From IMG/VR virus record IMGVR_UViG_2541047814_000002: a stretch of 44,195 nucleotides of DNA; one strand, given 5' to 3'. Shown one piece after another: positions 677 to 38,447 of the stretch; the stretch's first letter is position 1; every line of letters starts with the position of its first letter. This DNA comes from a virus. Lineage: Duplodnaviria; Heunggongvirae; Uroviricota; Caudoviricetes. A model generated the notes under the pieces. That model was given only the letters and a program-made list of their open reading frames with translations, had not been told where the DNA came from and did no database searches. The position numbers and the translations under genes were made by a program.

Positions 677-2733
677 ACGACCTCTTTTAATTGCCTGTCA
701 TTTAATTCTTTATGCCATATGCGGAAATTGCGAATATGGCCAAACAGATGTCGTTCTCCAGTATTCGTCTGCCCTCCAAATCGGATATTTTTATCAGCGG
801 TCACACCATTATATTCACAATAAACTTCATTAACCGCTTTACCATTTGTCACCACATGAAAGTGACCATCAGCTTTTGCAATACATCCAAATGTGGTTTT
901 CTCTGCAAATACATCTGTCGCTGCGCTATTAACATACAAGCCTGAAGGGTTTGACAGACTCATATATAACTTACCACTACCTCTGTTGATTGCTGCAATT
1001 GCTGATTGCCCGGTATTGGCTGCTGCTATATCCCACACGCGGGGTGCGGCGTTTGGTGCAATATCCCAGTTTTTATGAATCTCAAGTAAAAAAGTAAATG
1101 GTAACTTATAAAGATTATTTCTGGTGGGGATACTAACCAAATCACTGGCTCTTGTCGTTGCGCTGCCTCCTGAAATAATAAATGATGATACACACGGCCC
1201 ATTCTCTACTTGTGGGGTGGCAAGATAAATATAGTCACCAGATACTGTTGCCCCACCCCGCTCAGGAGAATACTGTATCTGAGAGCCTATTTTTAACTCA
1301 CCATCAATTGCCTGAATCGTTGCCTCTGCAAAAATCCAGCCTGTGGTCTTATCCTTCCTGACTCGTGCCGTAATTCTGCCGGCAGCCCCACCTGTCATAT
1401 TAATTTCAAGCGTTTGCGTATCAATGTACGCATCGCCAAGAAAAGTTGTTGCACTACCATCATACTTATCAAACCGTATACGTAACCTTACCTGTCGTTC
1501 TGTTTTAAAACGGCATGAGGTTGTCACGTACTTGTTATCGCCTGAGACATCAACTGACTTTGTTGCAGCAATTGATGCCATATTAATAGCCGAAGTTTGC
1601 CCAACCAGAGAATCGTTGCAGACAAACTTTCCATAAGTAAAACCAAAACTATCTGTCCCGGTTTCGGGCACATCCATGTTTGATGACTTCCCCCAGCTGG
1701 CTGGACTTTCCGAATTGAGCATGTAGTTCGTTCTTTGTCCCTCAATAAGCAGGCCATCACACTCAAATCGCGGCTCATTAATTTCCGCCGTTTTCAGTTC
1801 GCCAGATTTGTTGATATATGTTGCCGTTGATGCGCGACTGAAATTAACCTGTTTATCACTGGCGACCTGAACCACATCGTCACCAATAGCTATTTTTTTA
1901 TAGCCCGGAGAAAAACCCGCAATCATATCCAGTGAATCGTTAAACGGTATCCACACATCAGGCAGCGGCGGCACTATATTCGCATAGGGCTCTGCAGTCA
2001 CTTCCGCTGCGACTTCTGCGCGGTCTGCCGCCTTTTCAGCCCGTGTCGCTGCCGACAGAGCCTCATCCTTTTTCTGCCCGGCCTTTGTTGCGTCTGCTGC
2101 GGCCTCCCGCGCTTTTGTGGTGGCGACTCCGGCATTTTCAGCGGCTGACTCTGCATTACGGCGGGAAGCCTCTTCACTGTCTGCGGAGGCTTCTTCTGAC
2201 GCACGGGCATTTGTCTCTGAACGTTCTGCCGCTGTTGCTGCGTTTTGTGCGGCTGTTTTTGAAGAAGCTGCCGCTTTCGCGCTGTTACCTGCATTCGTCT
2301 CTGATGTTTTCGCCGCATTCCTGGACGATGCCGCTGCTGTTTCTGATTTCTTTGCTGCCGCTGCGCTCTGAGAGGCGGCTTCAGCGTTGCGTGCCACCTC
2401 TTCCACCATCTTTTCAAAACGATACAGTGCCTCCGGACGAACATCATCTTCTGTTGCAGCGCCCAGAAAATCATTCAATGTCCCCGGCTTAGAATCCTCA
2501 TACACGGTGATGGCCCCGGCATGTGAAGGCGGAAAACCTTCAACCAGCAGGATAACGCTGTACTGGCCATACTCGACATCCATGCTGTAACGTCCGGCTT
2601 CATCCGGATTTTCTGAGGCCACCGTGTTCACCACAACCGTGGTGCTGTTACGTTTTGCTTTGAGCTGAATGGTGCAGTTCTGTATCGGTTTTCCTGCACC
2701 GTCTTTCAGCACGCCTGAAATCTGTACTGCCAT
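673..2733 (-). CDS. stf: side tail fiber protein (Stf-like) with lambda Stf-type N-terminus, Ala/Ser-rich coiled-coil stalk and divergent C-terminal domain
   Basis: N-terminus MAVQISGVLKDGAGKPIQNCTIQLKAKRNSTTVVVNTV...GRYSMDVEYGQYSVIL matches remembered lambda Stf N-terminal domain; long low-complexity Ala-rich region; ATG at 2731..2733 (ORF track extends to a GTG at 2739). Confidence 0.8.
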   Translation of the reverse strand: MAVQISGVLKDGAGKPIQNCTIQLKAKRNSTTVVVNTVASENPDEAGRYSMDVEYGQYSVILLVEGFPPSHAGAITVYEDSKPGTLNDFLGAATEDDVRPEALYRFEKMVEEVARNAEAASQSAAAAKKSETAAASSRNAAKTSETNAGNSAKAAASSKTAAQNAATAAERSETNARASEEASADSEEASRRNAESAAENAGVATTKAREAAADATKAGQKKDEALSAATRAEKAADRAEVAAEVTAEPYANIVPPLPDVWIPFNDSLDMIAGFSPGYKKIAIGDDVVQVASDKQVNFSRASTATYINKSGELKTAEINEPRFECDGLLIEGQRTNYMLNSESPASWGKSSNMDVPETGTDSFGFTYGKFVCNDSLVGQTSAINMASIAATKSVDVSGDNKYVTTSCRFKTERQVRLRIRFDKYDGSATTFLGDAYIDTQTLEINMTGGAAGRITARVRKDKTTGWIFAEATIQAIDGELKIGSQIQYSPERGGATVSGDYIYLATPQVENGPCVSSFIISGGSATTRASDLVSIPTRNNLYKLPFTFLLEIHKNWDIAPNAAPRVWDIAAANTGQSAIAAINRGSGKLYMSLSNPSGLYVNSAATDVFAEKTTFGCIAKADGHFHVVTNGKAVNEVYCEYNGVTADKNIRFGGQTNTGERHLFGHIRNFRIWHKELNDRQLKEVV

Positions 2734-9813: not shown

Positions 9814-9907
9814 CTATGAGACGACAATAACTCAGTCCGCCTGGCGCCGATTATTCTGGCCGGTTTTGTAACCTGAGTGTCATTTACATGATCCAACAGG
9901 AAATGGC

Positions 9908-11407
9908 GTGACGCTCAATACTTCTCAGGTCAGTTACTATATGACTCAGCGTAAGAAAGGTATAACTCAGCATATCTCGGCCATGAAGGCTGGTATCTCA
10001 GTCCGTTCTGGTCGTCGGATCGAAAAAGGAGAGTGGGCAAAAAACAGTGTTCGGCACTGGCGCACACGCAAAGATCCTCTGGAAGCTGTGTGGGACAGCA
10101 TGCTTGTTCCTCTGTTGAAAGAGAGGCCGGCTCTGACACCAACAACTCTGCTGGAGATGCTACAGGATAAATATCCCGGCCAGTACCCCAACAGCCTTCG
10201 AAGAACAATGCAACGGCGGGTCCGCGAATGGAAGCTACAGTATGGTGCAGAGCAGGAGGTCATGTTCCGCCAGCGACATCAGCCCGGTCTGCGAGGTCTG
10301 TCGGACTTTACTGAACTGAAAGGTGTAGTTGTCACCATCGCCGGTAAGTTGTTGGCGCATAAGTTGTATCACTTCCGTCTGGAATGGAGCCACTGGAGCT
10401 GGATGCGGGTTGTGCTGGGTGGTGAGAGCTTCTCTGCTCTGGCTGAAGGTCTGCAGGAAGCCCTCGGACAACTGGGCGGAGTGCCGGTAGAACATAAAAC
10501 GGACAGCCTGAGGGCAGCATGGAAACAACAGGGCGAAGATGGACGCCGCGAGCTGACTGAGCGTTATGCTGCTCTCTGTCAGCACTACGGAATGCAGGGC
10601 GTACACAATAATGCCGGTCGGGGCCACGAAAATGGCTCGGTTGAAAGTGCCCACGGACATCTGAAAAGGCGTATCTGTCAGGCGCTGATACTGCGGGGCA
10701 GTAACGACTTCAGCACCATAGAAGAATATCAGGCCTTCATCACTCAGCAGGTTATGCGGCACAACCGTAACAATCAGGATCTGGTCAAGGAAGAACGTCT
10801 TCATCTGAAACCGCTGCCGCTTCGTCGCAGTGCTGACTATGATGAGCTGACTGTGAGGGTTAGCCGCAGCAGTACCATCAATGTGAAGCACGTCGTCTAC
10901 AGCGTACCTTCCCGGCTTGTAGGTCAACTGTTACGGGTCCGGTTATGGGACGATCGTCTGAGCTGTTACGTTGGCAGCAGCGAGGTCATGAGCTGCCCAC
11001 GTGTCAGACCAGAAAAAGGGAAGACGCGGGCCCGTCGTATCGACTTCCGACATGTGATCGACAGTCTGGCAAAAAAGCCCGGTGCGTTCTGCCATGCAAC
11101 GCTGAGAAATGACATCCTGCCAGACGATGAATGGCGGAGGCTGTGGCGTCGCTTATGTAATCATCTGGAACCCGACATGGCAGGCAGGCTGATGGTACAT
11201 GCTCTGAAACTGGCTGCAGGATACGACGATATCTCAGTCGTGGCAAAAGGTATGGAGCAGATGCTGAATACCCCGGGAAACGTGGATCTGCACCGGCTGA
11301 TGCGCTTCCTGGGTATAAAGGAAAAGGCGTTGCCGGTAGTCAATGTGAAACAGCATAACCTGAGCAGTTATGAGCAACTACTGCGTGGCAAGGGAGGTTC
11401 GCAGTGA
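9908..11407 (+). CDS. istA: IS21-family transposase IstA
   Basis: 499-aa ORF with N-terminal HTH-like region and transposase-like core; followed by overlapping istB; exact start (GTG at 9908 or downstream ATG) uncertain. Confidence 0.8.
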   Translation: MTLNTSQVSYYMTQRKKGITQHISAMKAGISVRSGRRIEKGEWAKNSVRHWRTRKDPLEAVWDSMLVPLLKERPALTPTTLLEMLQDKYPGQYPNSLRRTMQRRVREWKLQYGAEQEVMFRQRHQPGLRGLSDFTELKGVVVTIAGKLLAHKLYHFRLEWSHWSWMRVVLGGESFSALAEGLQEALGQLGGVPVEHKTDSLRAAWKQQGEDGRRELTERYAALCQHYGMQGVHNNAGRGHENGSVESAHGHLKRRICQALILRGSNDFSTIEEYQAFITQQVMRHNRNNQDLVKEERLHLKPLPLRRSADYDELTVRVSRSSTINVKHVVYSVPSRLVGQLLRVRLWDDRLSCYVGSSEVMSCPRVRPEKGKTRARRIDFRHVIDSLAKKPGAFCHATLRNDILPDDEWRRLWRRLCNHLEPDMAGRLMVHALKLAAGYDDISVVAKGMEQMLNTPGNVDLHRLMRFLGIKEKALPVVNVKQHNLSSYEQLLRGKGGSQ

Positions 11408-12159
11408 GCAATATCCATCACCTTGAACGCAGCCTGCGTAAACTACGCCTGACACGAGTTGGAGCTGAATGGCACGCTCTGGAAAAACGAGCACTGGCAG
11501 AAGGCTGGACACCATCGCGCTATCTTCTGACGCTATGCAATGAAGAACTCCTGTGGCGCGAGAGTGAAAAACTGCGTCGTTATAAAAAGGAGGCCCGGTT
11601 GCCAGTTGCCAAAACGCTAAGCGAATACGACTTCAGTCAGGTGCCGGAACTGAATGGAGCTCAGTTCCGGCAACTCTGTGAAACGACAGACTGGGTTGAT
11701 GCAGGAGAAAACGTTCTGCTGTTCGGAGCCAGCGGGTTGGGGAAAAGCCATCTGGCGGCAGCGATCGTGGATGGCGTAGTAGGCCAGGGCTACCGGGCCC
11801 GGTTCTACAGCGCAGGAGAGTTGTTGCAGGAACTACGTAAAGCCAGAGCGCAGTTGAAACTGAATGAGCTGCTACTGAAACTGGATCGCTACCGGGTGAT
11901 AGTGGTGGATGATCTTGGCTATGTCAAACGCGACAGCGCCGAAACGGGAGTACTGTTCGAGTTAATAGCGCATCGCTATGAACGTGGGAGCCTGGTGATA
12001 ACCAGTAACCATCCGTTCAGCATGTGGGGCAGCATCTTCGTGGATGAGACTATGGCGGTGGCGGCGGCAGACCGGCTGATCCATCACGGATATATGTTCG
12101 AACTGAAAGGTGAAAGCTACAGGAAAAAGACAGCGAAGGCAGTAACAAGCGCGACTTGA
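11404..12159 (+). CDS. istB: IS21-family ATP-binding helper protein IstB
   Basis: 251 aa with Walker A GASGLGKSHLA and Walker B VIVVDDLGY; ATGA overlap with istA stop. Confidence 0.9.
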   Translation: MSNIHHLERSLRKLRLTRVGAEWHALEKRALAEGWTPSRYLLTLCNEELLWRESEKLRRYKKEARLPVAKTLSEYDFSQVPELNGAQFRQLCETTDWVDAGENVLLFGASGLGKSHLAAAIVDGVVGQGYRARFYSAGELLQELRKARAQLKLNELLLKLDRYRVIVVDDLGYVKRDSAETGVLFELIAHRYERGSLVITSNHPFSMWGSIFVDETMAVAAADRLIHHGYMFELKGESYRKKTAKAVTSAT

Positions 12160-12224
12160 TGTCGCACTGAAGGGTGCGGCCAGTATAGTTGGCGCGAGTC
12201 GGCAAAACTAGTTGACGTCTAATA

Positions 12225-13654
12225 GTCAGCAGGGCAGCATGAGCACTGTCTTCCTGACGATCGCCCGCAGACACCTTCACGCCGGACTGTTTCGGCTTTT
12301 TCAGCGTCGCTTCATAATCCTTTTTCGCCGCCGCCATCAGCGTGTTGTAATCTGCCTGCAGGATTTTCCCGTCTTTCAGTGCCTTGTTCAGTTCTTCCTG
12401 ACGGGCGGTATATTTCTCCAGCGGTGTCTGCAGCCGTTCGTAAGCCTTCTGCGCCTCTTCGGTATATTTCAGCCGTGATGCTTCGGTATCGCTCTGCTGC
12501 TGCGCATTTTTGTCCTGTTGACTCTGCTGTTCAGCCTTCTTTCGGGCGGCTTCAAGCGCAAGACGGGCCTTTTCACGATCATCCCAGTAACGCGCCCGCG
12601 CTTCATCGTTAACAAAATAATCATCCTTGCGCAGATTCCAGATGTCGTCCGCTTTCTTAAACGCAGCCTCTGCCTTAATCAGCATCTCCTGAGCGGTATC
12701 AGGACGACCAATATCCAGCACCGCATCCCACATGGATTTGAATGCCCGTGCTGTCCTGTCTGCCCAGGTTTCCAGCGTGCCCATGTTCTCTTTCAGGCGT
12801 CGGGTCTGGTCATCAAACCCTTTCGTTGCGGCCTCGTTCGCCGCCTGCAATGCCCCGGATTCATCGCCGGAACGCTGCAACTGAGCAACATACGCAATCT
12901 GCTCCGCCGTTACGTTATGGAACTGGCGCGCCATCGCCGTCAGCCCCGACGTCGGGTCAGTGGTCAGCTTCCCGAAGGCTTCAGCGACCTTGTCCACCTC
13001 CACGCCGGATGCAGAGGAGAAACGCGCCACACTCTGGCTGATGGATGCAATCTGAGCCTCACCGCTTACTCCCGCCTTAACCAGTGCGCTGAGTGACTCG
13101 CTGGTCTGGTTAAACGTCAGCCCTGCCGCCTGCCCGGCTCTGGACAGGACCAGCATACGATCTGCCGTCAGACCCGACTGATTGCCGGAAAGGACCAGCG
13201 TTTTGTTGAAATCGGACAGGGTTGAGTTACCCTGATACCAGGCATACGCCAGCGCACCGGTCGCCACCGCCAGCGAGGTGGCCCCGACCATCGGCAGGGT
13301 GATCGCACCGGCAAGCCCCCGGAACATGGGGATCATCCCGCCGAAGGAGTCCTTAACCTGACCACCCTGTTGCAGCAGGATCAGCCACGGGCTTTGCCCG
13401 CCTGCAAGCTGCGTGGCCACGTCGGTGAACTGTGCAGGCAGCATACGCATGGCGGCTTTATACTGCCCGACGGAAATCCCCGCTTTCTGTGCAGCCAGCG
13501 CCTGTCGGCTCAGCGACTGTTCAACGACTGCCGCTGTTTTTTTCGCATCACTTTCCGTACCGGAAAAATGACGCCTGACTCTGGCCATCTGCTCGTCAAA
13601 TCTGGCCGCATCCAGACTTAAATCAACGACCAGATCGCCTACCGGTTCAGCCAT
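12225..13654 (-). pseudogene. H: tail tape measure protein H, N-terminal fragment (gene split by IS insertion)
   Basis: MAEPVGDLVVDLSLDAARFDEQMARVRRHF... through ...SAHAALLT matches the lambda H N-terminal part; the ORF-track ORF 12050..13654 continues 57 codons into IS sequence (read-through artefact). Confidence 0.9.
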
Positions 13655-18472: not shown

Positions 18473-19978
18473 TCATGGCATGGCCATGAGCATTTTCACG
18501 TCCGCATCACCGTCTGCTGACGTCTGTGCCACGCCACCCTGTACCGCTGCCGGTGAATGGTTCGCCATGAAATGTTCAAACATGGCGGTTGTGGATGCAG
18601 AGACCGGTTCTGCCTTACCTGATCCCGCAGCCAGCACAGCCCGGGCGCTCTCCACTGTCATTCCCGGGCAGGCAGCCAGCTGTTCAGCCTGCGCCTCAGC
18701 CCCTTTTGCCTCATCCAGTGCCATGATCTGATCACGGAGTGATGGTCCGGCATCCGCCTGCGGTGAAGCAGCCAGGATCGGGCGGGCTTTTTCCACCGTC
18801 ATCTCCGGCATCGCCGCCAGCGTTGCCGCCAGTTGTTCACGACCGTTCGCTTCTTCACACACCATAATGCGATCGGCTTCACTCTGCGTGGATGCCACCG
18901 GCTGCTGCGGTGCCGCCGCGGCCAGAATCGCCCGGGCCTGTTCAACGCTCATGCCCTGTTGTCCTGCCAGCATCGTGGCAAGCTGTTCACGTCCTTTCGC
19001 TTCCTGGCATGTCAGGATCCCCATCACTCGCTGGTTCTCCTGCGCGGCGGCTTCCGTTGCAGTTAATTGCGGCATAGTGCCTCCTCTGACATTACTGTTC
19101 AGCGCCGTGGCCATCACACTGATGGCATCCGACGCATTGATTAATTCATCCGCCAGCCCGGCCTCAATGCCGGACTGACCTTCAAAAACGGCAGCCTCTG
19201 TTCCCGTGACGGCATCAACAGACAGACCGGTATACATCGCCACTTTTTCGGCAAACATCCGGCGCGCCGCATCAATCCGCTGCTGCATGTCCTGGCGAAC
19301 CTCTGCCGGCAACGCTTCAAACTGATTGCCATCCACCTTGTGCGCCCCTGAGTAAATCAGCGTGATATCCACACCGGCCTGCGCCAGATGACCGGCATAG
19401 CTGACATGGCTCATCATCACGCCAATGGAGCCGATACGGGATGTCTGGGTAACCAGCCGTCGGGAGCAGGCCGACGCCAGCAGCATGGCTGCAGAACAGG
19501 CCGTGTCATTGCACAGTGCCCAGACCGGCTTCTGCTGACGGAGGCGGTAAATCATGTCAGCGCAGTCAAACGCGCCGGCGGCCTGCCCGCCCGGACTGTC
19601 AATGTCCAGCAGTACGCCCCGCACCTGGCTATCCGCCATTGCCTGCTGAAGACAGGCGACAATGCCGTCATAGCCTGTCATTCCGGAAAATGGCCGCATA
19701 CCACCCAGCCGGTGCACCAGCGTGCCGGTCACCGGCAGTACAGCAATACCGTTCACCACCCGGTAAACACGGGCCGGTCGTTTACCTCCGGCCATGTACT
19801 CGTCCGTTTCAGCCAGCATTCCGGGAGCATCAAACTGTACCTGCTGTTGTGGTACCGAAAGACTTGCTGCCCCCATCTCGCGCCCGAGCGCGCAAAAGAA
19901 AACCCGCGCATAGGCGGGCTCCAGAAGCAGCGGTTCATTGAATGCTGCGGCAATAATGTGTGAAAGATTACGTCTCAC
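18473..19978 (-). CDS. C: head maturation protease C (S49 family) with nested scaffold Nu3 region
   Basis: N-terminal protease domain matches lambda C (AFNEPL.LEPAYARVFFCAL, VWAL.ND.CSA, GSIGVMM.H); C-terminal part carries three tandem Nu3-like repeats. Confidence 0.9.
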   Translation of the reverse strand: MRRNLSHIIAAAFNEPLLLEPAYARVFFCALGREMGAASLSVPQQQVQFDAPGMLAETDEYMAGGKRPARVYRVVNGIAVLPVTGTLVHRLGGMRPFSGMTGYDGIVACLQQAMADSQVRGVLLDIDSPGGQAAGAFDCADMIYRLRQQKPVWALCNDTACSAAMLLASACSRRLVTQTSRIGSIGVMMSHVSYAGHLAQAGVDITLIYSGAHKVDGNQFEALPAEVRQDMQQRIDAARRMFAEKVAMYTGLSVDAVTGTEAAVFEGQSGIEAGLADELINASDAISVMATALNSNVRGGTMPQLTATEAAAQENQRVMGILTCQEAKGREQLATMLAGQQGMSVEQARAILAAAAPQQPVASTQSEADRIMVCEEANGREQLAATLAAMPEMTVEKARPILAASPQADAGPSLRDQIMALDEAKGAEAQAEQLAACPGMTVESARAVLAAGSGKAEPVSASTTAMFEHFMANHSPAAVQGGVAQTSADGDADVKMLMAMP

Positions 19979-25953: not shown

Positions 25954-26247
25954 ATGAAAAAAATGTTGTTTTCTGCCGCTCTGGCAATGCTTATTACAGG
26001 ATGTGCTCAACAGACGTTTACTGTTGGAAACAAACCTACAGCAGTAACACCAAAGGAAACCATCACCCATCATTTCTTCGTTTCGGGAATTGGGCAGAAG
26101 AAAACTGTCGATGCAGCAAAAATTTGTGGTGGTGCAGAAAATGTTGTTAAAACAGAAACCCAGCAAACATTCGTAAATGGATTGCTCGGTTTTATTACTT
26201 TAGGCATTTATACTCCGCTGGAAGCGCGTGTGTATTGCTCACAATAA
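25954..26247 (+). CDS. bor: Bor lipoprotein (serum-resistance, Iss family)
   Basis: 97 aa, MKKMLFSAALAMLITGCAQQTFTV.NKP.AV.PKETITHHFFVSGIGQKKTVDAAKICGG... matches lambda Bor. Confidence 0.9.
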   Translation: MKKMLFSAALAMLITGCAQQTFTVGNKPTAVTPKETITHHFFVSGIGQKKTVDAAKICGGAENVVKTETQQTFVNGLLGFITLGIYTPLEARVYCSQ

Positions 26248-28037: not shown

Positions 28038-29120
28038 ATGAAAAAATTAACAGTGGCAATTTCTGCTGTAGCTGCATCAGTACTGATGGCGATGTCTGCT
28101 CAGGCAGCTGAAATTTATAATAAAGACAGTAACAAGCTGGATCTATACGGGAAAGTTAATGCCAAGCACTACTTCTCCTCTAATGATGCAGATGATGGTG
28201 ATACTACTTATGCCCGTCTTGGCTTCAAAGGTGAAACCCAAATCAACGATCAACTGACTGGTTTCGGTCAGTGGGAATATGAATTCAAAGGCAACCGTGC
28301 TGAATCTCAAGGTTCTTCCAAAGACAAAACCCGTCTTGCATTTGCAGGCCTGAAATTTGGTGATTACGGCTCAATCGATTACGGCCGTAACTACGGTGTA
28401 GCATACGACATCGGTGCGTGGACTGACGTTCTGCCAGAATTCGGTGGTGATACCTGGACCCAAACAGATGTGTTCATGACTGGTCGCACTACTGGTGTTG
28501 CAACTTATCGTAACAACGACTTCTTTGGTCTGGTCGATGGCCTGAACTTTGCTGCTCAGTATCAGGGTAAAAATGACCGCACTGACGTAACTGAAGCCAA
28601 TGGTGATGGTTTCGGTTTCTCCACTACTTATGAGTATGAAGGATTCGGCGTGGGTGCAACCTATGCTAAATCAGATCGCACTGACGGTCAGGTCGCCTAT
28701 GGTAAGAGCAAATTCAATGCCTCCGGCAAAAATGCGGAAGTATGGGCTGCAGGCCTGAAATATGATGCGAACAATATCTATCTGGCTACCACATATTCTG
28801 AAACTCAGAATATGACCGTTTTTGGTAATAACCATATTGCAAACAAAGCACAAAACTTTGAAGCAGTAGCACAATATCAGTTTGACTTCGGTCTGCGTCC
28901 ATCTGTTGCTTACCTTCAGTCAAAAGGTAAAGACCTTGGTGTTCATGGTGACCGAGACTTAGTCAAGTATGTCGATGTCGGTGCTACTTACTACTTTAAT
29001 AAAAACATGTCCACTTTTGTTGATTACAAAATCAACTTAATTGACGATAGTAAGTTTACCAAAACAGCTGGTATTGATACCGACGACATCGTCGCTGTAG
29101 GTCTGGTTTATCAGTTCTAA
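28038..29120 (+). CDS. nmpC: outer membrane porin, NmpC/Lc (OmpC-family) type
   Basis: 360 aa with signal peptide [38 protein letters not shown] start and C-terminal VAVGLVYQF; located between Q and S as in DLP12 and PA-2. Confidence 0.9.
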
Positions 29121-29914: not shown

Positions 29915-30277
29915 TCATTCATTCCCCATTTCGGTGATGGTCAGTTCCAGCCTCCCACCTTTGGTAACAGGCATCTTCACAACGCGGTAATCAACGACCT
30001 GAGCATCATCCAGCCAGAAACCTGCTTTAGTGAGTGCGTCAAAAGCGGCTTTTTGCAGATTATCCAGGTCACGGCGACGGCGATCCGGCATGTGGCACTC
30101 AATGCGGATTTTCACAGGCATAGCCAGGCCGATATCCAGCATTGCGTTTTTAATGATTCGGGCGACGTTATCGCGGTATGCCTGCCCCTCTGCGCTGACG
30201 TGCGTGCGCCCGCGATTATGGCGGTAATAGCGATTATTGCTCGGAGGCCAGGGTAATGTGATGCTGTAGGTATTCAC
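29915..30277 (-). CDS. rusA: Holliday junction resolvase RusA
   Basis: 120 aa, [35 protein letters not shown]... matches E. coli RusA. Confidence 0.9.
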
Positions 30278-30296
30278 GCCTTAATAACCCCCTCTT

Positions 30297-30491
30297 TCAG
30301 CCACATAACCTGTGTTCTCGCCATACCTTCCAGCGCGCATTCTTTTGCATATGCAGCATCGACTTGCTTGGCATGCCCTTTACCGGCAATCTTCTGTATG
30401 CGCTAAACCTAGATAGAATCCACTCTGTGCACATTGAAGCCCGCTCTATGCTTTCTTTCAGGTATTGAAGGGATTGAGATGGGCTAAGCAT
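30297..30491 (-). CDS. hypothetical small protein (64 aa), nin region
   Basis: ORF tightly packed between flanking genes (start overlaps upstream stop); no homology recognised. Confidence 0.3.
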
Positions 30492-30831
30492 TATTGGCCT
30501 CCTGCATCAGGAGAAAGACAATCATGGCGGCGCGGAGAGGTCTGGTATCAAATATTGGGCTTACGCCTTTTGCATCCACACACCATTCAGTTAACTGGTC
30601 TAAGATAGAAATCCTGTATTTCTCAATAATCGGCCATGAAGCGCTCGGATCATTGCAGTAGTCAGGCAAATGATTTAATGGCTCAAAAGTTGTATCAGCA
30701 TTTCCGTAATACCATTTGTTGGTGTTATTCCCTGATGTTTCCGGTTTACTTGCCCAAAGGCCTTTAAAAATTATGTCTCCTACCATTCTGTTAATTTCAA
30801 AATCACTTAACTGTGAATAATCCATTGTCAT
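30484..30831 (-). CDS. hypothetical nin-region protein (115 aa)
   Basis: ORF start overlaps ninE stop; occupies the ybcO-like position of DLP12; not recognised. Confidence 0.5.
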
Positions 30832-31004
30832 TTCCTCGCACGATATCTTAGCCACCGGATATCCCACAGGTGGGCTGTGTAATTGAAGGTTTTTACGTCA
30901 GATTCTTTTGGGATTAGCTTGCGTTTATTTCTGGAGCGTTTCGTTGGAAGGTATTTGCAGTTTTCGCAGATTATGTCGGTGATGCTTCGTCGCTGTCGTC
31001 TCAT
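30828..31004 (-). CDS. ninE: NinE
   Basis: [52 protein letters not shown]... matches lambda NinE. Confidence 0.8.
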
Positions 31005-31528
31005 GCAGCCCTCCTGACGCCCTGCCCGATCGCCATCAATGCCGCTTTGGATACGGTAGTAAACATCCGTCGAGGACTGATGAACGGTCGCCAAATCAGC
31101 AGCATGGAGCCTTTGCTGTTTCCCTTCTTCTCCAGCCCTGTCGATGGTTCGATAAAATTAATCCGTCCATCAGTGATAATACGAACTTCGTCAACACTCT
31201 CCAGAGCCTTGCTGAACCATCCGACAGACATATCCTCTGGCACAAGCATCACTACCGTCTGTCGCTGTTGTATACACTGCTCAGCGGCTTTTTCCACCCA
31301 CGGCCTGATATTGCTGTACGGTGGGTTATTCCAGATTGCACCGTGGCTTACCCACTCAGAATTGAGCGCGTCGTCGTCCTCAGTTAGCCAGTGAGCGCAC
31401 AGAGCATTTTTGTCGCTCGCTGCCGAATCCAGCCAGAATCCAAACTCAATATCCAGTGCATCAAAAAGCCAAAGCGGCGTTTGCCAGCAGTCCTTGTCGT
31501 GTGCTGGCGTATTTGATTTGATAGTCAT
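31001..31528 (-). CDS. phage DNA N6-adenine methyltransferase (Dam-like, orphan)
   Basis: NPPY catalytic motif (WNNPPYSN) and [13 protein letters not shown]-terminus typical of phage N6-adenine MTases; no adjacent restriction gene. Confidence 0.75.
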
Positions 31529-31965
31529 GCAGCCCGATCTCCCCATCGCGCTTTCCATTCGAGAGCCAGTCGCGCTTCGTCTGACCACTTAACGCCACGC
31601 TCTGTACCGAATGCCTGTATAAGCTCTAATAGCTCCGCAAATTCGCTTACACGCATCCTGCTGGTTGACTGGCCTATTACCACAAAGCCATTCCCGGCAA
31701 GGTTAGGAACAACATCCTGCTGCTTTAATGCTGCGGTAAACACACACTTCCAGCTTTCTGCATCCAGCCAGCGACCATGCCATTCAACCTGACGAGAGAC
31801 GTCACCTAAGCAGGCCCATAGCTTCCTGTTTTGGTCTAAGCTGCGGTTGCGTTCCTGAATGGTTACTACGATTGGTTTGGTTGGGTCTGGAAGGATTTGC
31901 TGTACTGCGTGAATAGCGTTTTGCTGATGTGCCGGAGATCGAATTTCAAAGGTTAGTTTTTTCAT
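31525..31965 (-). CDS. ninB: NinB recombination protein
   Basis: MKKLTFEIRSPAHQQNAIHAVQQILPDPTKPIVVTIQERNRSLDQNRKLWACLGDV... matches lambda NinB. Confidence 0.9.
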   Translation of the reverse strand: MKKLTFEIRSPAHQQNAIHAVQQILPDPTKPIVVTIQERNRSLDQNRKLWACLGDVSRQVEWHGRWLDAESWKCVFTAALKQQDVVPNLAGNGFVVIGQSTSRMRVSEFAELLELIQAFGTERGVKWSDEARLALEWKARWGDRAA

Positions 31966-32038
31966 GACTTCCCTCTCCCCCAAATAAAAAGGCCTGCGAT
32001 TACCTGCAGGCCTGTTATTAGCTCAGTGATGTAGATGG

Positions 32039-35419: not shown

Positions 35420-35977
35420 TTGGCAAAAATAGATGATTATCAGCCAAGCCAAGTAGAAGTTGATAAAGTACTTTATTGTAAAAAAATAGTTAACTTTTCT
35501 GGCGTTAAATGGAAACAGAAACCAAGTCGCTCTGATATGTGGCTACAAGCCCATATCATCCCCTTGGATGAGGATTGTATACCTATACAAGGGCTAAAGT
35601 TTGAACTGAAATGGAAACCAGATCAGGATTCAGAACCTGATGACCCGATTTCTTACCCTAAAATAAATATTATTGCTTTCTATCATAACAAGAGGGTTTT
35701 CGCGGTAGATACCTATCACTTTGACAAACACACGAATAGTTACAAGGTCGATCATCCGAAGTACCAAGATATCATTTACGGTGCTCACTACCATGTATAC
35801 TATGAAGAAGCTGGATACTATAGTGATAGAATAGCGTTTCCAATCGAAGATGACATAAACCCAGATGACCTGGTAGGGTATTGGAATTACTTCTGTAAAC
35901 ATCTGAACATAACTTACTCTGGGAGAATACCTTTACCGCTTGAAGATGAGTCGGGGCAAATGGGGTTTGGAATATGA
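35420..35977 (+). CDS. hypothetical protein (185 aa), first gene of an operon in the rexA position
   Basis: ORF 39 nt downstream of cI on the same strand; TTG start in the ORF track (start uncertain); acidic, Tyr/His-rich; no recognisable homology; AT-rich coding sequence. Confidence 0.65.
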   Translation: MAKIDDYQPSQVEVDKVLYCKKIVNFSGVKWKQKPSRSDMWLQAHIIPLDEDCIPIQGLKFELKWKPDQDSEPDDPISYPKINIIAFYHNKRVFAVDTYHFDKHTNSYKVDHPKYQDIIYGAHYHVYYEEAGYYSDRIAFPIEDDINPDDLVGYWNYFCKHLNITYSGRIPLPLEDESGQMGFGI

Positions 35978-36726
35978 TGTGCTCAACAGTGATCTCACAA
36001 CTAGGTTTCGAATGCCATCCAATAGGCAAGACCTTGAGAATTATCAGTCCATTCACTTACTGTGATGATGGAGAGCATGTCGGTGCCTTTATCCGTGAAG
36101 TCAATGGTAGGTATTTAGTTAGTGACAGATGCGATGCCTTAATGAATATGGAGGCAAGAGGGATCTCGCTTACCAAAAAACGACTTGATGAGATACGACA
36201 ATTACTGCTTAAAGAAGGCGCAGAACTCAATGCTCGAGGAGAAATCATTGCTTGGGCAACAGAAAAGGATGTCGGTGCGATTACATCGAACATAATTAGA
36301 GCTGGTATACTCGCATCAACTTTGTCGTTAGACTGGTATCAGCCAGTTCAAGCTGAAAAGTTTGAAAGTATGGTTATTGATTATCTATATCACACAGAGC
36401 TTAGAGACGCACTTTCTCTTCGTGAAAACGTATATGGCTTGAGTGGACATCAAATTACCGTCCCTGTAACAATAAAAACCGACATACCTAAATACGTTTT
36501 TACATCAAGCGTGAAACACGGAGGAAGCTGGAATAGTGCTTACTCATTGCTTGGGAAACTAATTGATCTTAAAGCTTCAAGTGAGGAGTATAACAACAGA
36601 TTTGTTGTTATAGACAGCGAAGCAATTGGTGATCAAATGCAACAACTCTCCTTACTCTTCCATGAATCAAGCCAAGTTCTACCATTCTCCAAAAGAGAGA
36701 CTTGGGTTAAGAGACTTGCAGCATAA
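35974..36726 (+). CDS. hypothetical protein (250 aa), second gene of an operon in the rexB position
   Basis: ATG overlaps upstream stop (ATGA); followed by intrinsic terminator; no recognisable homology. Confidence 0.7.
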   Translation: MMCSTVISQLGFECHPIGKTLRIISPFTYCDDGEHVGAFIREVNGRYLVSDRCDALMNMEARGISLTKKRLDEIRQLLLKEGAELNARGEIIAWATEKDVGAITSNIIRAGILASTLSLDWYQPVQAEKFESMVIDYLYHTELRDALSLRENVYGLSGHQITVPVTIKTDIPKYVFTSSVKHGGSWNSAYSLLGKLIDLKASSEEYNNRFVVIDSEAIGDQMQQLSLLFHESSQVLPFSKRETWVKRLAA

Positions 36727-37162: not shown

Positions 37163-37435
37163 ATGTCCAGAAAAACAGAATTTAAAGGCACCGCAGCTTC
37201 TCGCCGTAGAGCTCGTCGCGCAAATCTGCAAAGTCAGGAGGCGATCAGCTCCGACAAGCTACACAGGCCAACCCCTTCACGAGTGGTCTTGCAATGCAAG
37301 CTCAAACCAGCAATGAGAGCAGAAGTGATAACTCTGACAACGTTGACCAGAAAATATGAAGGTTCAACTTGTCTTCCGAACGTAGCTCTTTACGCGGCAG
37401 GCTACCGGAAATCAAAACAACTGACGGCGAGATGA
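37163..37435 (+). CDS. N: antitermination protein N (P22-like C-terminus, Arg-rich N-terminal motif)
   Basis: ATG preceded by GGGAGG; Arg-rich motif TAASRRRARRANLQ; C-terminal LPNVALYAAGYRKSKQLTAR resembles P22 gene 24/N. Confidence 0.75.
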   Translation: MSRKTEFKGTAASRRRARRANLQSQEAISSDKLHRPTPSRVVLQCKLKPAMRAEVITLTTLTRKYEGSTCLPNVALYAAGYRKSKQLTAR

Positions 37436-38246: not shown

Positions 38247-38447
38247 ATGACTACGACTATTGATACAAATCAATGGTGTGGACAATTCAAACGATGCAAT
38301 GGATGCAAGCTGCAATCGGAATGCATGGTTAAGCCTGAAGAAATGTTTCCTGTAATGGAAGATGGGAAATATGTCGATAAATGGGCAATACGAACGACGG
38401 CAATGATTGCCAGAGAACTTGGTAAACAGAACAACAAAGCTGCCTGA
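38247..38447 (+). CDS. ral: restriction alleviation protein Ral
   Basis: 66 aa MTTTID.NQWCGQFKRCNGCKLQSECMVKPEEMFPVMEDGKYVDKWAIRTTAMIARELGKQNNKAA matches lambda Ral. Confidence 0.85.
   Translation: MTTTIDTNQWCGQFKRCNGCKLQSECMVKPEEMFPVMEDGKYVDKWAIRTTAMIARELGKQNNKAA

Follow-up and report, generated by a model that had tools for sequence, protein, structure and literature searches.

What does a DNA methyltransferase gene do in the nin region of an E. coli prophage, and which site would its product modify? The question arises from a window of 44,195 nucleotides (the whole stretch of DNA that was analysed), in which the first-pass annotation had recognized an orphan N6-adenine DNA methyltransferase with an NPPY motif between ninB and ninE, and had proposed that such an enzyme might protect phage DNA from restriction, alter host gene expression, or be expressed on induction to modify progeny DNA. 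The window, which begins just past sitD and ends with the integrase gene adjoining icd, is a lambda-like prophage, 99.9% identical to the prophages of E. coli ATCC 11775 and Nissle 1917. The minus strand carries, in this order, cro, cII, O, P, ren, a terminator hairpin, ninB, the methyltransferase gene (dam), ninE, ninX, a DUF1364 remnant, rusA, ylcG and Q (quuD), and the plus strand carries cI, a two-gene insert, N, ral, cIII, kil, gam, bet, exo, xis and int. The DUF1364 remnant is a partial pseudogene at about 30274-30363 (minus strand), and a second trace of decay, a truncated tail-fibre gene, lies at about 2370-2733 (minus strand) at the prophage end by sitD, both sets of coordinates being transferred from sister annotations. 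The late and lysis region holds two cargo genes: one for an OmpC-like porin, with Q on one side and the lysis genes on the other (28038-29120, plus strand), and iss, a bor-like serum-survival lipoprotein gene adjoining the Rz-type gene (25954-26247, plus strand).

The position given by the first-pass annotation, 31001-31528, is exact, and to it we add the strand, which had been left unstated: the open reading frame runs on the minus strand from an ATG at 31528-31526 to a TGA at 31003-31001, i.e. 175 codons plus the stop. Its product matches Pfam PF05869 (“DNA N-6-adenine-methyltransferase (Dam)”) over profile positions 1-167 of 169, with E = 3.7e-65 and 219 bits for a cut-off of 28.1 bits, and the NCBIfam equivalog TIGR01712 (“phage N-6-adenine-methyltransferase”) with 1.2e-79 and 265.6 bits for a cut-off of 97 bits. 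These matches are far above chance, and the protein is a full-length member of the PF05869/TIGR01712 family. The NPPY codons, read from the sequence at 31316..31327 (minus strand), encode residues 68-71, the catalytic motif IV, which is invariant in the T1, HP1 and VT2 enzymes and in 41 homologs; together with the two family matches, they bear out the claim of an NPPY-motif N6-adenine methyltransferase. Loss of catalytic residues was looked for by aligning the protein with the T1, HP1 and VT2 enzymes, and none is lost: besides NPPY, all the other family-invariant residues are kept (D13, W15, T17, P18, L33, D34, A37, R122, F125, I126, T130, G131, N137 and K139). We infer functional roles for the residues of the D-x-W-x-T-P, L-D-x-x-A and R122 to K139 stretches, the L-D-x-x-A stretch being taken as the cofactor-binding motif I. 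A longer form of 195 aa, starting from a GTG at 31588, was rejected because the Pfam profile starts at residue 4 of the 175-aa form, and also because the ATG is the start used by RefSeq and all homologs and makes an ATGA overlap with the ninB stop. Overall, we have little doubt about the enzymatic identity of the product.

The gene is tightly packed between its neighbours. Upstream lies ninB, which encodes an orf-family recombination mediator (31525..31965, minus strand, following the RefSeq annotation; PF05772, 1.3e-54), and downstream lies ninE (30828..31004, minus strand; PF05322, 1.8e-41), so that the location that had been given holds, with an ATGA junction on each side. Such packing by gene overlaps is typical of nin regions (PMC8022706), and the overlaps on both sides suggest that translation of the gene is coupled to that of its neighbours. 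At the left boundary, the string GGGCTGCATGA (31525..31535, minus strand) contains the ATGA overlap of the ninB stop with the methyltransferase start, and at the right boundary the string GGGCTGCATGA (31001..31011, minus strand) contains the overlap of the methyltransferase stop with the ninE start, both read from the sequence. The same 11 nt are thus found at the start and at the stop of the gene, and NinB and the methyltransferase both end in Arg-Ala-Ala-stop. When the methyltransferase gene was deleted between the repeats in a synthetic sequence, the product matched phage JEP4 (Lederbergvirus) in one piece, with 97.5% identity over 404 nt. JEP4 (L007 1655-1730) has the exact empty site, where ninB is followed directly by ninE via an ATGA overlap, and lambda carries ninC and ninD in the same slot. 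From the empty site of JEP4 and the other occupants in lambda, the methyltransferase gene appears as a precise cassette in a variable slot, a behaviour that fits the known mosaic exchange at lambdoid gene boundaries and is not a new mechanism. A GATC site (31536-31539) falls within the likely ribosome-binding stretch of the gene (GGAGATCGGGCTGCATG), and a second one lies near its 3′ end at 31028; no significance is attached to either.

The designation as an orphan holds within the prophage. In the annotation of two near-identical RefSeq prophage copies, RusA and lambda Exo are the only endonucleases and no restriction endonuclease is present, and PADLOC ranks its oMTase model (“orphan methyltransferase”, 1.6e-19) first for the protein, in agreement with the earlier statement that no cognate endonuclease is found nearby. 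Membership in a defence or restriction-modification system was considered and rejected, PADLOC matches to Type II methyltransferases being weak and no nuclease partner being found in the prophage. A Ral antirestriction gene is present in the early-left operon (38247-38447, plus strand; PF11058, 1.7e-48); with Ral and a Dam-type methyltransferase, the prophage carries two functions related to restriction evasion. As a separate observation, the place that rexA/rexB occupy in lambda, immediately downstream of cI, is taken here by two genes of the same orientation (35420-35977 and 35974-36726, plus strand). Their products, of 185 aa with a weak DUF6978 match and of 250 aa with DUF1828, give weak matches (E = 4.8e-4 and 4.7e-10) to PDC-M24 A/B, a candidate defence pair of PADLOC, and the two genes may form a prophage-encoded defence module.

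The first-pass annotation had left the target specificity to be looked up, and near-identity to a known enzyme offers a candidate. The protein is identical at 174 of 175 residues to that of orf32 of the Stx2 phage VT2-Sakai (M.EcoVT2Dam), the sole substitution being D51 here for A51 there, in a column without a majority residue among the 41 homologs. It is also 99.4% identical to the product of the 933W gene and 98.3% to that of the phage 434 gene. In the passage of PMC6602927 that cites Radlinska & Bujnicki (2001), M.EcoVT2Dam of prophage VT2-Sa is described as an orphan methyltransferase with the target 5′-GATC-3′. More distant members of PF05869 are phage T1 Dam and HP1 Dam (7.1e-75 for the latter), 32% and 35% identical to the present protein, respectively, which share with it D13, W15, T17-P18, L33-D34, A37, NPPYS and the R122..F125-I126..T130-G131..N137..K139 series. 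For T1 Dam, GATC specificity has been shown by experiment: T1 DNA from a dam- host stays DpnI-sensitive, and deletion of its dam gene leaves GATC unmethylated (PMC10470545). From the near-identity to M.EcoVT2Dam and the T1 Dam experiments, the predicted substrate is most likely the adenine of GATC, which is also the host Dam site.

The protein has a class I SAM-dependent methyltransferase fold. Its AlphaFold model, built with 41 homologs in the alignment, reaches a pLDDT of 79 and a pTM of 0.79, the NPPY loop being weaker (mean pLDDT of 56 for residues 61-70). A phmmer search against all PDB chains found no solved relative and returned chance-level matches alone, among which SdiA (E = 0.31) and a DHH protein (E = 0.69) were rejected as such. 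With its 175 aa, the methyltransferase is essentially a bare catalytic domain, without a separate target-recognition domain, and the conserved R122-K139 loop would be a candidate GATC reader.

The anatomy of the region points to the time at which the gene is expressed. Between ren and ninB, we found and folded a GC-rich, intrinsic terminator-like hairpin with a U-tract (31980..32013, minus strand; hairpin and U-tract at 32013-31990), which we take to be a lambda tR2-type terminator; only 2 aligned positions of the ren-ninB intergenic region differ from lambda. An N-type antiterminator gene is also present (37163..37435, plus strand; PF25694, 1.5e-32), and N would be needed for read-through of the terminator into the nin genes. 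Located in the interval between the replication genes and Q, with a tR2-type terminator upstream, an N gene in the prophage and ATGA overlaps on both sides, the gene has the anatomy of a nin-region delayed-early gene, and, as it lies downstream of the terminator in a prophage endowed with N, it is probably made on induction. Expression on induction, as the first-pass annotation proposed, is consistent with this arrangement, i.e. a terminator near-identical to that of lambda and the N gene, and with the precedent of Phi24B, whose dam product is 100% identical to the VT2-Sakai protein and whose dam expression changed significantly on induction (PMC3342100).

Taken as a whole, the locus is best explained, and very likely so, as encoding a GATC methyltransferase, expressed from a delayed-early nin gene and probably acting in a top-up role. 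The product would be a solitary S-adenosylmethionine-dependent N6-adenine methyltransferase of the phage T1/HP1/VT2 ‘Dam’ family, one link in the nin operon. Under cI repression, the gene would, by analogy with lambda, probably be silent; upon induction, transcripts from the early rightward promoter would reach it as soon as N allows RNA polymerase through the tR2-type terminator that precedes ninB. The enzyme would then top up GATC methylation on phage DNA that replicates fast enough to outpace host Dam, such that packaged genomes would be fully methylated. The usual rationale for GATC methylation by phages is protection from nucleases that cut unmethylated GATC. Full methylation would provide this protection, and possibly also protection from MutH/SeqA-type readers of un- or hemi-methylated GATC.

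Evidence from other phages supports a shortfall of host methylation. In lambda and P22, host Dam leaves virion DNA undermethylated (PMC8022706), and T1 dam-minus progeny is just partly methylated by host Dam, with a burst size of ~60% even in a Dam+ host (PMC10470545). Because of this shortfall in T1 deprived of its own dam, completing GATC methylation is the best-supported role, and we hold the top-up and anti-restriction role with moderate confidence. The function of phage Dam enzymes is still poorly understood (PMC7556043). Avoidance of GATC was looked for as a sign of restriction-linked selection and gave no clear signal in the prophage: with 134 sites observed vs 200 expected, GATC is mildly depleted, and its ratio of 0.67 does not stand out among 4-bp palindromes, GGCC and CGCG having similar values. 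Clustering of GATC, looked for as a sign of selection or regulation, amounted to one loose group of sites among the late genes (18725-18871), with none of note close to the methyltransferase gene.

A more specific version of the function combines the reading of GATC via the R122-K139 loop, perhaps as a dimer and in a manner unlike that of structurally characterised adenine methyltransferases, with a selective value in Dam+ hosts that would come from shielding against MutH and SeqA rather than from anti-restriction. MutH and SeqA act at un- or hemi-methylated GATC. Shielding recombining or replicating phage DNA from them would explain the fixed place of the gene beside the recombination genes ninB and rusA; we nevertheless regard this combined proposal as unlikely.

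Would the present prophage still profit from such an enzyme? The gene could be an evolutionary passenger without present function in its host, an intact gene in a prophage that is past making infectious particles. A 2.4-kb IS21-family element (9814-12225), comprising an IstA-like ORF of 499 aa (9908-11407) and IstB (11404-12159; PF01695, 9.5e-62), interrupts the tape-measure gene, and a prophage with a split tape-measure gene probably cannot build tails. The tail-fibre gene is a truncated pseudogene in the sister-copy annotation, and the Nissle prophage copy is reported not to be inducible (PMC5987069), which, with the IS21-family insertion, makes infectious progeny doubtful. The proposal that the enzyme modifies progeny DNA calls for a qualification: expression on induction fits the anatomy, but the modification of progeny may be moot in the present prophage, with its split tape-measure gene. 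Against a mere passenger, the methyltransferase ORF is intact with all its family-invariant residues, it differs from that of VT2-Sakai by 8 synonymous vs 1 non-synonymous changes, and the identical allele is found in isolated phages. In addition, the IS21-family element looks recent since it is missing from other prophage copies, those of Nissle 1917 and ATCC 11775. A passenger gene without present function thus appears improbable, about as much so as the combined loop and shielding proposal.

A main role in the lysogen would require that the gene be expressed at a low level under repression, supplementing host Dam and thereby stabilising lysogeny or adjusting promoters of the host or the prophage by epigenetic means. 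In lysogen cultures of Phi24B, the product of dam has been detected, and the authors suggest a supplement to host Dam in lysogens (PMC3342100); the same paper, citing Murphy et al. (2008), reports that host Dam is required for stable 933W lysogeny. However, a signal in lysogen cultures can stem from spontaneously induced cells, and the gene lies behind both cI-repressed early transcription and a tR2-type terminator. Nor is there a convincing internal promoter: the promoter-like hits in the region number 7 vs 8.5 expected from shuffled sequence, and the minus-strand consensus hits at 31203-31176 and 30999-30970, considered as sources of lysogenic expression, were rejected with scores of just 9/12. 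Finally, host Dam already methylates 99.9% of chromosomal GATC sites (PMC6602927), which makes the altered host gene expression raised by the first-pass annotation unlikely, and we rate a lysogen-centred role as slightly less credible than a passenger gene.

Least probable is another or a relaxed specificity, with adenines methylated outside GATC and the phage shielded against several restriction systems: some prophage methyltransferases are very relaxed, e.g. the Serratia prophage OS31 enzyme (PMC7556043), the classical DpnI/MboI assay for Dam-like enzymes would not exclude extra sites, and the present protein has no separate target-recognition domain, but it is 99.4% identical to a GATC-assigned enzyme, the distant T1 and HP1 members are assigned GATC too, and no unexplained m6A motif appears in the methylomes of strains with two copies of the VT2-type gene, in uninduced cultures (PMC6602927).

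The gene itself is intact, conserved and very common. At ≥95% identity, i.e. at least that value over its 528 bp, it is found in 1566 of 5426 complete E. coli genomes (about 29%), and it is 100% identical in Nissle 1917, ATCC 25922, NU14, S88-type strains and others, where it is always annotated and always between NinB and NinE. The phage records ev207, ev017 and PhiR57_1 carry the surrounding 5.5 kb with 100% identity, and tblastn found relatives in 2158 phage records. The first-pass annotation thus described a real gene correctly and read it rightly in outline. It is an already known gene, ordinary for lambda-like E. coli prophages, which RefSeq annotates as “phage N-6-adenine-methyltransferase”; such a gene, one residue from a cloned enzyme, has little discovery value.

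Its probable specificity has practical consequences. If the target is the host Dam site, no new motif would arise in a Dam+ cell, and the methylome of a Dam+ lysogen would offer no motif that could be assigned to the methyltransferase; in PMC6602927, Dam and its phage homologs are stated to have been indistinguishable. The first-pass annotation had proposed that the lack of an attributable motif in methylome data would speak against the enzyme, a test that is uninformative outside a dam- host. In dam- derivatives of strains with such prophages, GATC methylation may return when the prophage is induced, and it can then confound assays based on DpnI/MboI as well as work for which dam- DNA is required.

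We finally compared the enzyme with known systems. With E. coli Dam and T4 Dam (alpha class), it has in common the predicted target, the chemistry and the solitary nature. Sequence homology to EcoDam or T4 Dam, as expected of the classical Dam family (EcoDam, T4 Dam and DpnM, alpha class), was not found, and the present enzyme would thus share the Dam specificity without belonging to that family. Phage T1 Dam (YP_003925.1) is likewise a solitary GATC methylase, shown to finish the methylation that is only partial with host Dam, with NPPYS and the invariant residues common to both, but it is 237 aa long, owing to an N-terminal extension and an internal insertion, and belongs to a virulent phage without a nin operon. 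The Dam of Haemophilus phage HP1 (orf13, NP_043482.1), cited as a phage Dam-like enzyme (PMC7556043), is of similar size (173 aa) and of the same PF05869 family, whereas HP1 is a P2-like phage of a different host with its dam gene outside a nin-type operon. The closest counterpart is M.EcoVT2Dam of VT2-Sakai, whose gene is also present in 933W, Phi24B and phage 434: as here, it encodes 175 aa and is flanked by ninB and ninE, which it overlaps in the same way. The two differ in their carriers, VT2-Sakai being an Stx phage, whereas the present gene resides in a lambda-like, non-Stx element at icd whose P replication gene is of the lambda type and whose antiterminator is of the QuuD type.
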